This document shows positions 22,298 to 22,539 of a DNA stretch of 31,646 bases, piece after piece. Source of the DNA: a virus (taxonomy: Duplodnaviria > Heunggongvirae > Uroviricota > Caudoviricetes); IMG/VR virus record IMGVR_UViG_648276671_000019, positions 1 through 31,646 of that record; one strand, 5' to 3'. Each line of letters starts with the position of its first letter. Positions within the stretch are counted from its first letter, which is position 1. The translations under genes and the position numbers were made by a program. The notes under the pieces were generated by a model, which searched no databases, had not been told where the DNA came from, and saw only the letters and a list, made by a program, of their open reading frames with translations.

Positions 22298-22539
22298 ACT
22301 TTTTATCCATCTTGTACTAGCTTTCTGGTACAGCCGTTTTTCAGGGGTATCCCCCTTTAGATCGAGATCTACCTAACCTATGTACCCGTCTGTTGGAAAA
22401 GCCTGTTCCAGTGCTTCGCACTAACACACAGGCACTCTCCCCTTACCCCTCTCTCTGAATGACGTACCAGCTAACTGGTACGCAGGTACATCCATGATGA
22501 GGGGCTCAACCAGTCGGTCACCTTTAAGACCGACGCCAT

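Follow-up and report, generated by a model that had tools for sequence, protein, structure and literature searches.

A conserved multi-hairpin non-coding element beside the helicase and primase genes of Eru1-type phages and its possible role as an origin or priming site

The early-right operon of a prophage of the Fels-1/phi467-like kind, contained in a DNA stretch of 31,646 nucleotides (IMG/VR record IMGVR_UViG_648276671_000019; this whole stretch is referred to as the window, and coordinates are window positions unless a locus or record is named), includes a gap of 242 nt at 22298-22539, which lies between the open reading frame (ORF) of a 97-amino-acid protein, named here p97, and that of a 122-amino-acid (122-aa) protein. 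Judging from sequence comparison, the gap appears to form one cis-acting multi-hairpin element of an Eru1-type module, which comprises p97, the element, an optional nuclease cassette, a superfamily 2 (SF2) helicase and a Toprim primase. As to its function, we tentatively infer that the element may be the origin or priming site of the module, activated by early rightward transcription. Whatever its exact role, it represents a new non-coding family, since no family in Rfam 15 matches it and a text search of the two Eru1 papers returned no origin, no intergenic or non-coding element, and likewise no O/P genes, initiator, antiterminator or iterons (PMC8044961; PMC8951638). At the gathering threshold, the only Rfam matches in the window are three tRNAs, and a search at E ≤ 10 over 22150-22700 gave two chance-level matches of 15 and 11 bits.

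The folded element in the gap

An initial annotation, made from the sequence alone, had described a long non-coding gap upstream of the 122-aa gene and the helicase-primase module, which was confirmed by the ORFs, the annotation and the indel pattern. The gap is unannotated in phi467 and Fels-1 (depositors) and in three E. coli genomes (RefSeq), its homologues contain indels of 1, 4 and 10 nt, which are not multiples of three, and their alignment shows conservation without codon periodicity, so that the gap is real and non-coding. In phi467 the core is crossed by a 26-codon ORF, with no in-frame start in the window or in the other types, and a conserved mini-ORF behind the Shine-Dalgarno-like G tracts was rejected on sequence inspection, as the frames differ between types. 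The G+C content is about 50%, with more G than C (skew +0.23 vs. +0.07 to +0.09 in the flanking coding sequences). No intrinsic terminator was found on the sense strand of the gap (total counts equal the shuffled expectation), and a sigma-70 promoter scan in and around the invariant block returned nothing in the gap. Consensus sequences for sigma-54, the DnaA box, IHF and ops (RfaH), inspected by hand, gave partial matches only and were not counted. Both strands of the gap fold better than shuffled sequences (z = -3.0 for the sense and -2.5 for the antisense strand), a difference that discriminates weakly between them. The predicted parts of the element, in the direction of transcription, are as follows.

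22513-22534, minus strand: hairpin HP0, GUCGGUC-UUAAAGGU-GACCGAC, just 3′ of the p97 stop codon
22463-22482, minus strand: promoter-proximal GTAC near-palindrome (second copy of the initial annotation), CGUACCAG-UUAG-CUGGUACG
22439-22449, minus strand: two G tracts, GGGG-UAA-GGGG, on the non-template (sense) strand
22382-22435, minus strand: three-way junction with helices P1, P2 and P3
P1, minus strand: GUGCCUGU/ACGGGUAC, the helix closing the junction
P2, minus strand: GUGC-GAA-GCAC, including the heptamer GCGAAGC at 22413-22419
P3, minus strand: UGGAA-N7-UUCCA
22366-22382, minus strand: near-invariant single-stranded block CAUAGGUUAGGUAGAUC, including a GATC
22343-22356, minus strand: hairpin HP5, GGGGG-AUA-CCCCU, 3′ of the conserved block
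22314-22331, minus strand: promoter-distal GTAC near-palindrome (first copy of the initial annotation), GUACCAG-AAAG-CUAGUAC, ending 17 nt upstream of the 122-aa start codon (ATG)

The core of the element (22358-22454, minus strand) is conserved above the flanking genes: in the gap alignment of phi467, Fels-1, two Klebsiella phages and three E. coli prophages, the approximately 100 nt between the palindromes are almost invariant, beyond the level of the flanking coding sequences. In a set of 17 distinct sequences, the three-way junction has 91.3% of its cells paired, whereas slid registers reach 27-56%; two-sided changes affect seven pairs, and none of 500 shuffles attains the covariation score. 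The clearest single case is the Yersinia copy, in which P1 reads GGAGUUG/CAACUCC in the same register and is fully compensatory, and a U-A to C-G exchange in P2 separates the two main sequence types, A and B. All A/B-type sequences contain the heptamer GCGAAGC, which in one variant reads GCGTAGC, and type E contains C-GUAA-G. P1 is supported by types A and H, by the Yersinia copy and by part of the type B variants, but types D and F show it weakly or not at all; it is proposed here for the type of the window and its near relatives, and a universal closing helix P1 was rejected (duplex energy of own arms -7.6 vs. cross-arms -6.0 kcal/mol). The covariance model R1, built from the core alignment, scores 112.8 bits for the window copy, which is the single copy in 31.6 kb (both strands, filters off). 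GATC sites are located at 22360-22363 and 22366-22369, and extra GATCs occur at non-homologous variable positions, at about twice the background density.

The remainder of the gap also appears to consist of hairpins. The 8-nt loop of HP0, TTAAAGGT, is found in 165 of 179 hairpins on a variable stem, whose 45 distinct variants contain 222 Watson-Crick, 32 G.U and 4 A.C pairs on the sense strand; type C loci carry HP0 in duplicate. Hairpins of other sequence occupy the position of HP5 in the relatives, such as GGGCA/UGCCC in Fels-1 and GGGCG/CGCCC in type C, and the Shiga toxin (Stx) phage types have GAUAGUU/AACUAUC vs. GAUGGUU/AACCAUU. Since a duplex palindrome would give both transition mismatches equally, the strong excess of G.U over A.C on the sense strand (32:4 in HP0, 21:6 in the core) indicates that this strand folds as a single strand, either RNA or displaced DNA, and not as duplex operator DNA. 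Two possible long-range pairings were also noted: CCCCUC at 22499-22504 with the first G tract at 22444-22449 (minus strand), which would enclose the promoter-proximal palindrome, and ACGUCAUUCAG with CUGAAUGGCGU at the p97 stop (22455-22465 with 22533-22543), which would enclose both this palindrome and HP0. Analogous pairings between C tracts and G tracts are predicted in types B and C.

The initial annotation had drawn attention to two copies of an 18-bp palindrome bracketing the gap. Their positions were reproduced, with GTACTAGCTTTCTGGTAC at 22314-22331 and GTACCAGCTAACTGGTAC at 22464-22481, and a motif search within the window found no copies beyond these two. With up to two mismatches, GTACYAGN4CTRGTAC matches twice in 31.6 kb on both strands (0.06 expected; none of 100 shuffles reached two), and GTAC-N10-GTAC matches twice as opposed to 0.11 expected. 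The copies are 83% identical with a start-to-start distance of 150 nt, and 101 distinct related regions carry both at corresponding positions, with a spacing of 147-158 nt. The bracketing is thus real, but the copies are to be seen as outer hairpins or near-palindromes of a larger folded element. Moreover, the second copy, described as a perfect palindrome, is not one, as its perfect 8-bp arms CGTACCAG/CTGGTACG (22463-22470 and 22475-22482) enclose a CTAA centre without self-complementarity; in the first copy the arms are of 7 nt and contain a single mismatch, T.G on the plus strand or C.A on the minus strand.

The two copies behave differently in the relatives. The left half of the promoter-proximal copy, GTACTAG, hardly varies; its loop is of the NUAA kind, G.U:A.C is 10:2, and the palindrome caps a longer covarying stem, which reads CUCAUUG/CAAUGAG in Fels-1 and E. 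coli but CUCGUUU/AAACGAG in a Klebsiella phage. Loop and enclosing stem behave as a single-stranded hairpin with compensatory changes. At the promoter-distal copy, the right half TAGTAC is kept and the left half, GTAYCNN, drifts without compensation; the commonest variant retains 4 of 7 Watson-Crick pairs, A.C (19) is about as frequent as G.U (18), and the pair counts in the relatives lend no support to a maintained hairpin. This copy may be a recognition sequence instead. On the antisense (plus) strand at 22312-22333, the promoter-distal palindrome followed by CCGTTTTTCA scores as terminator-like, with regional counts no higher than in shuffles; such a site could stop antisense transcripts from entering the element. 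In type B relatives (L007, L033, L053, L014, L047 and L050), other repeats replace the GTAC palindromes at the core flanks, namely direct copies of TTTAGACGTC(C/T)AGA, several GGCTAAA units, and a perfect TAGCCGT-CTAA-ACGGCTA of the same 7-4-7 geometry.

The family was collected by pattern scans of IMG/VR, by protein-guided retrieval via the helicase and with the covariance model, which yielded about 220 element-bearing loci and about 130 distinct full-length sequences. The element occurs in prophages of Escherichia, Salmonella, Klebsiella and Yersinia and in Stx phages, with the core conserved beyond the neighbouring genes, and its length is 240-480 nt, the gap being kept in every lineage. 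The taxonomic range is mainly based on IMG/VR and named phages, as a scan of species-representative genomes returned only three loci (Yersinia and an enterobacterium), and full matches in a plasmid collection were only circularised phage genomes or large prophage-bearing plasmids and thus not informative. Both the G tracts and the block CAUWGGUUARGUAGAUC recur in every central type. The extraction pattern required G4-6, 1-4 nt (mostly A/U) and G4-6, so that tract counts are not independent of it, and GGTTANGTNGATC belonged to the search pattern, which makes its presence in the retrieved loci a matter of construction. The tracts also occur in types A and B, for whose collection they had not been a condition, and both features are unchanged in TL-2011c (element at NC_019442 19014-19106) and ArgO145, two phages that were reached via the helicase protein and a literature accession, not by a DNA pattern. 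Between tracts and block lie 43-64 nt of lineage-specific, still foldable sequence, which takes the form of the three-way junction of the window type, of the commonest version, named type C, or of a tetraloop hairpin GUGCCC-GUAA-GGGCAC.

The replication module and the nuclease slot

The early-right operon is located on the minus strand in the order cro-like gene, p97, gap, 122-aa gene, SF2 helicase, Toprim primase and, further on, Q. The genes around the element are the following.

23175-23942, plus strand: cI-like S24 repressor gene, divergent from the operon
22846-23118, minus strand: cro-like helix-turn-helix (HTH) gene
22540-22833, minus strand: p97 gene, an ORF and the first gene of the co-inherited module
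21929-22297, minus strand: 122-aa gene, an optional cassette gene with a predicted restriction-endonuclease-like fold
19232-21817, minus strand: SF2 (RadD/ResIII-like) helicase (Pfam and NCBIfam), containing an intein-like insert
18262-19230, minus strand: Toprim/Zn-ribbon primase (Pfam and NCBIfam), directly after the helicase
16590-17414, minus strand: Q-type antiterminator gene (Pfam Antiterm)

In loci found by DNA pattern only, p97 precedes the element and the helicase follows it wherever the flanking sequence suffices, except for one deletion remnant and two chance pattern matches. In 132 of 133 loci p97 is of one family, but its 5′ neighbour comes from eight or more families with no relation to one another. 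This places the mosaic joint between immunity region and module immediately 5′ of p97, and p97, element, helicase and primase are inherited as a unit. By this linkage, the element travels with the replication genes, as origins do, and not with the immunity region. The p97 protein itself is arginine-rich (...RKENRARHEANVRLRRFV...) and matches PHROG 852 (function unknown); it has no Pfam match above threshold, profile searches against PDB and NCBIfam gave noise only, and it resembles no described family. Its AlphaFold2 model is of low confidence, with three helices and a predicted local distance difference test (pLDDT) value of 58, and too poor for a fold search. A reading of p97 as an HTH protein resembling sigma region 4 was rejected (hhalign against RpoE, probability 0.7%).

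The helicase is of the SF2 type and similar to RadD, PriA and RecG, with a cysteine-rich zinc motif and distant matches of the UvsW type, and is not a DnaB-type ring helicase; its homologues diverge to about 66%. It has 861 amino acids as opposed to 552 in phi467, with residues 1-334 being 98% and residues 644-861 being 86% identical. The insert of about 309 amino acids (19889-20815, minus strand) starts at Cys335 and ends at Asn643 before Cys644, shows a weak match to an intein N-terminus and is probably an intein. A 19-codon upstream ORF, MKTTSQNYYLIIAGAAQCS (21808-21867, minus strand), stands behind a strong GAGGAGG Shine-Dalgarno sequence and overlaps the helicase start codon (21817) by 10 nt, and its peptide is conserved in type C loci as MKTTSQNYYLISTGAAQWS. 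Given this conservation, the ORF may encode a leader peptide or couple its translation to that of the helicase.

The slot between element and helicase is occupied by the 122-aa gene, by NUMOD4-HNH genes of at least two kinds or, in most loci, by a deletion remnant of the 122-aa gene. It is thus a hot spot for nuclease genes, with occupants at L007 838-1440, L014 8999-9355, L062 3142-3798 and window 21929-22297, the NUMOD4-HNH genes being I-HmuI-like. The 122-aa protein has no match in Pfam or NCBIfam and is 39% identical to gp29 of TL-2011c. Its AlphaFold2 model is confident (pLDDT 83.4) and gave weak Foldseek matches, the best of them all nucleases of the restriction-endonuclease-like fold: Bax1, the R2 endonuclease domain, NucS and McrC (E about 1e-3 to 2e-3, template modelling score 0.4-0.5). 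D58, E72, D74 and K75, candidates for the D...(D/E)xK motif of the PD-(D/E)xK fold, are conserved in the homologue alignment. The model thus points to a nuclease-like fold and not to an HTH regulator. In type C loci, only 5′ and 3′ remnants of the gene are left. The protein is dispensable for keeping the palindromes, because its gene is deleted in most loci that still hold both.

These results bear on the proposal of the initial annotation that the palindromes are operators of a dimeric regulator, which is poorly supported. In its full form, the GTAC palindromes would be duplex sites bound by a dimeric phage protein (122-aa, p97 or Cro), bracketing or looping the 150-bp core and regulating replication-gene expression or origin firing, which we consider quite improbable. 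Restriction-endonuclease-fold proteins often bind palindromes as dimers, which counts for such a role, as do the uniqueness of the motif in the window, its conserved position and spacing, and the sequence conservation of the outer half-sites GTACTAG and TAGTAC; as the downstream copy keeps its half-site without hairpin compensation, some sequence-specific recognition may take place there. In addition, lineages with more divergent 122-aa homologues have other palindromes at these positions, TGAAAT-N-ATTTCA in Stx phages and TAGCCGT-CTAA-ACGGCTA in L014 and L047. However, one and the same upstream palindrome is found in L014, which has an HNH cassette, and in L047, whose cassette is 122-aa-like. 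The upstream copy also forms part of a longer covarying stem, nothing resembling the palindromes was found in the cI-cro operator region, and both the gene deletions and the non-HTH model described above speak against the 122-aa protein as the regulator. Near-identical modules also have different flanks: L039 and L020 are 97% identical in the helicase-primase region and differ only in cassette and core flanks, and L005 and L007 have p97 proteins of 99% identity and different flanking repeats. A covariation of the flank type with p97, helicase or primase was rejected on the basis of these same comparisons.

The nuclease genes also raise the question of whether the core is a by-product of selfish nucleases, i.e. 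a target site or co-conversion tract of the adjacent homing-type endonuclease genes without a phage function. The occupants of the slot, whether NUMOD4-HNH or the nuclease-fold 122-aa gene, the intein-like insert in the helicase, and the inheritance of cassette type and flank or core type as a block would fit such an origin. We nevertheless consider it very improbable, as the element is equally conserved in many loci without an intact cassette gene, the compensatory helix substitutions would be needless for a nuclease target, and a gap of 240-480 nt is kept in every lineage.

Replication origin, priming site or RNA leader

The initial annotation had named a replication origin as an alternative to operators, and this is the best-supported reading, although on account of the core, the module linkage and the hairpins resembling priming signals and not of the palindromes. 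An origin or priming site is suggested by the linkage to the replication genes, the lack of a recognisable initiator or another origin candidate in the module (profile searches of the module proteins found no Rep-type initiator), the hairpin motifs, a structure-specific helicase of the RadD/PriA/RecG/UvsW kind, the clusters of G on the non-template strand, and a modest enrichment of GATC. Under this reading, transcription from the cro promoter would pass through the two G tracts, where pairing of G-rich RNA with a C-rich template would make a lasting RNA-DNA hybrid (R-loop) more likely. Folding into the conserved hairpins, including the GCGAAGC mini-hairpin and the invariant GGUUAGGUAGAUC block, could then involve the transcript, the displaced sense strand or the two together, and on this structure the RadD/PriA-like helicase and the phage primase might assemble and begin DNA synthesis. 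The GTAC near-palindromes would mark the limits of the element, as its outermost stem-loops or as recognition sequences, and would not be repressor operators. In its most specific form, an initiator-less, transcription-primed origin of a double-stranded DNA temperate phage, at which an R-loop at the G-tract leader displaces hairpins that recruit an SF2 helicase and a Toprim primase, the proposal is unlikely; it would follow the same logic as ColE1 or mitochondrial CSBII, but in a phage.

Clusters of G on the non-template strand are a classical R-loop-promoting feature of the ColE1 and mitochondrial origins. In ColE1, RNA II is a long sense transcript with multiple stem-loops upstream of the DNA start, a G-rich segment is implicated in the persistent RNA-DNA hybrid, and the displaced strand offers a hairpin assembly site for the SF2 helicase PriA, with no need for a Rep-type initiator. 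The element is comparable in that its region is transcribed in the sense direction, carries non-template G tracts and is predicted to be strongly folded, which are prerequisites for a primer transcript. In contrast, there is no sequence similarity, the transcript is the operon mRNA and not a dedicated primer, and the phage encodes its own helicase and primase; no equivalent of the antisense RNA I was found at the element.

A second comparison concerns primase-dependent initiation sites, as GCGNAGC and GCGNNAGC DNA mini-hairpins are described at those of G4, St-1, alpha3 and RSF1010 ssiA (review, PMC13037366). The complementary-strand origins of these phages and ssiA/ssiB of RSF1010 are strand-specific hairpin clusters with GCGNAGC, GCGNNAGC or CCGAAGG on one strand only (PMC13037366), and in the element GCGAAGC at 22413-22419 is on the sense strand inside the covarying P2, with the variants GCGTAGC and C-GUAA-G. 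The known signals differ in that they comprise 40-140 nt and act on single-stranded or unwound DNA, whereas the element is larger, belongs to a duplex temperate phage, and additionally contains the G tracts and the invariant 17-nt block. Likeness to an iteron origin such as those of lambda, P1, SaPI and RSF1010 oriV, where an initiator binds three or more direct repeats beside an AT-rich unwinding region, is not apparent, as there are only two inverted-type 18-mers, no direct-repeat array in the gap, a G+C content of about 50% and no Rep-type initiator in the module; type B relatives do have short direct repeats, TTTAGACGTC and GGCTAAA.

Several points weigh against an origin. The R-loop step and initiation at the element are inferred, the former purely so, the GATC enrichment is weak and based on few independent events, P1 is not detectable in every type, and neither a classical iteron array nor a DnaA box nor a clear AT-rich unwinding segment was found in the type of the window. 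Furthermore, a conserved structure of 240-480 nt with long-range pairings is more typical of RNA than of an origin of a duplex phage, and blocks that stay invariant while the helicase diverges to about 66% would be in line with recognition by a host component, for instance RNA polymerase or the ribosome.

The last two points lead to a structured RNA leader of purely transcriptional or translational function, serving either in antitermination or Rho resistance (like put, or as a nut read by p97) or in the control of helicase-primase expression, which is the main rival reading and which we hold to be somewhat less likely than an origin. An N-less phage could thereby transcribe about 6 kb from cro to Q. 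The position in the early-right operon just after cro and p97 is that of nutR or putR, homologues of N, cII and cIII are reported to be absent from Eru1 phages (PMC8044961), and Q lies about 5 kb downstream. The covarying helices, long-range pairings, variant GNRA tetraloop and sense-strand G.U bias would be expected of an RNA, 240-480 nt of untranslated, G-rich and C-poor sequence are unfavourable for Rho loading, and the invariant single-stranded blocks suggest an invariant host target. On the other hand, the element has a single copy and none in the leftward operon, even the permissive Rfam search gave no match, no convincing intrinsic terminator was found on the sense strand downstream (counts equal the shuffled expectation), and the element never recombines away from helicase and primase, whereas an antitermination site is expected to travel with the promoter and the immunity region.

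Comparison with the individual systems gives a similarly divided picture. The element would resemble HK022 put (PMC9378689) in being a folded transcript that acts in cis, in belonging to the early operon of a lambdoid-type phage without N and, as for putR, in lying downstream of cro. The put sites, however, comprise about 70 nt with two stem-loops and exist in two copies (putL and putR), while the element is a single copy with a three-way junction and flanking hairpins. No similarity to the early region of HK022 was detected, the best match of model R1 to HK022 24000-32000 with filters off being 6.4 bits (E=2), and no second copy that would make a put-like pair was found in the 31.6-kb window, leftward early genes included. 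With lambda nutR and N, the element shares the position after cro and the conserved loop of HP0 on a covarying stem beside the gene of a small arginine-rich protein, comparable to boxB and N. It differs in the HP0 loop, which has 8 nt (UUAAAGGU) instead of a GNRA-like pentaloop, in the absence of a nutL counterpart, and in p97, which is similar to no described family; a conserved boxA (CGCUCUUA-like) was not found in the gap alignment.

Relation to the Eru1 phages

TL-2011c is the reference phage of the Eru1 replication type. The module in the window agrees with it in the DEAD/DEAH helicase (506 amino acids there, 509-560 in the homologues here), the Toprim primase and the homologue of gp29 (PMC8044961; PMC8951638). 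It differs from the published description in that both papers define the module by proteins only, and neither the TL-2011c nor the ArgO145 record annotates the p97 gene. In both phages, the "intergenic" gap of about 530 nt after cro (L245 3633-4163 in TL-2011c, L147 2602-3132 in ArgO145) holds an unannotated p97 homologue followed by the element, which therefore gives a handle for annotating this gene. The module is present in the Stx2a phages of the Norwegian O103:H25 and German O104:H4 outbreak strains and has been tied to unstable lysogeny (PMC8044961). Toxin gene dosage rises with phage replication. With its constant position in the module, the sharply conserved, foldable cis element of about 100-250 nt offers a concrete candidate, open to testing, for the control site that is missing so far. 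If the element is an origin, it would be an unusual variant of a known origin logic, and if that origin is indeed initiator-less, prophage derepression would be directly coupled to replication in Eru1-type Shiga toxin phages. Apart from the module, the window contains three tandem tRNA genes (15161-15383, minus strand) downstream of the Q-type gene, the same arrangement as upstream of stx in Stx phages.

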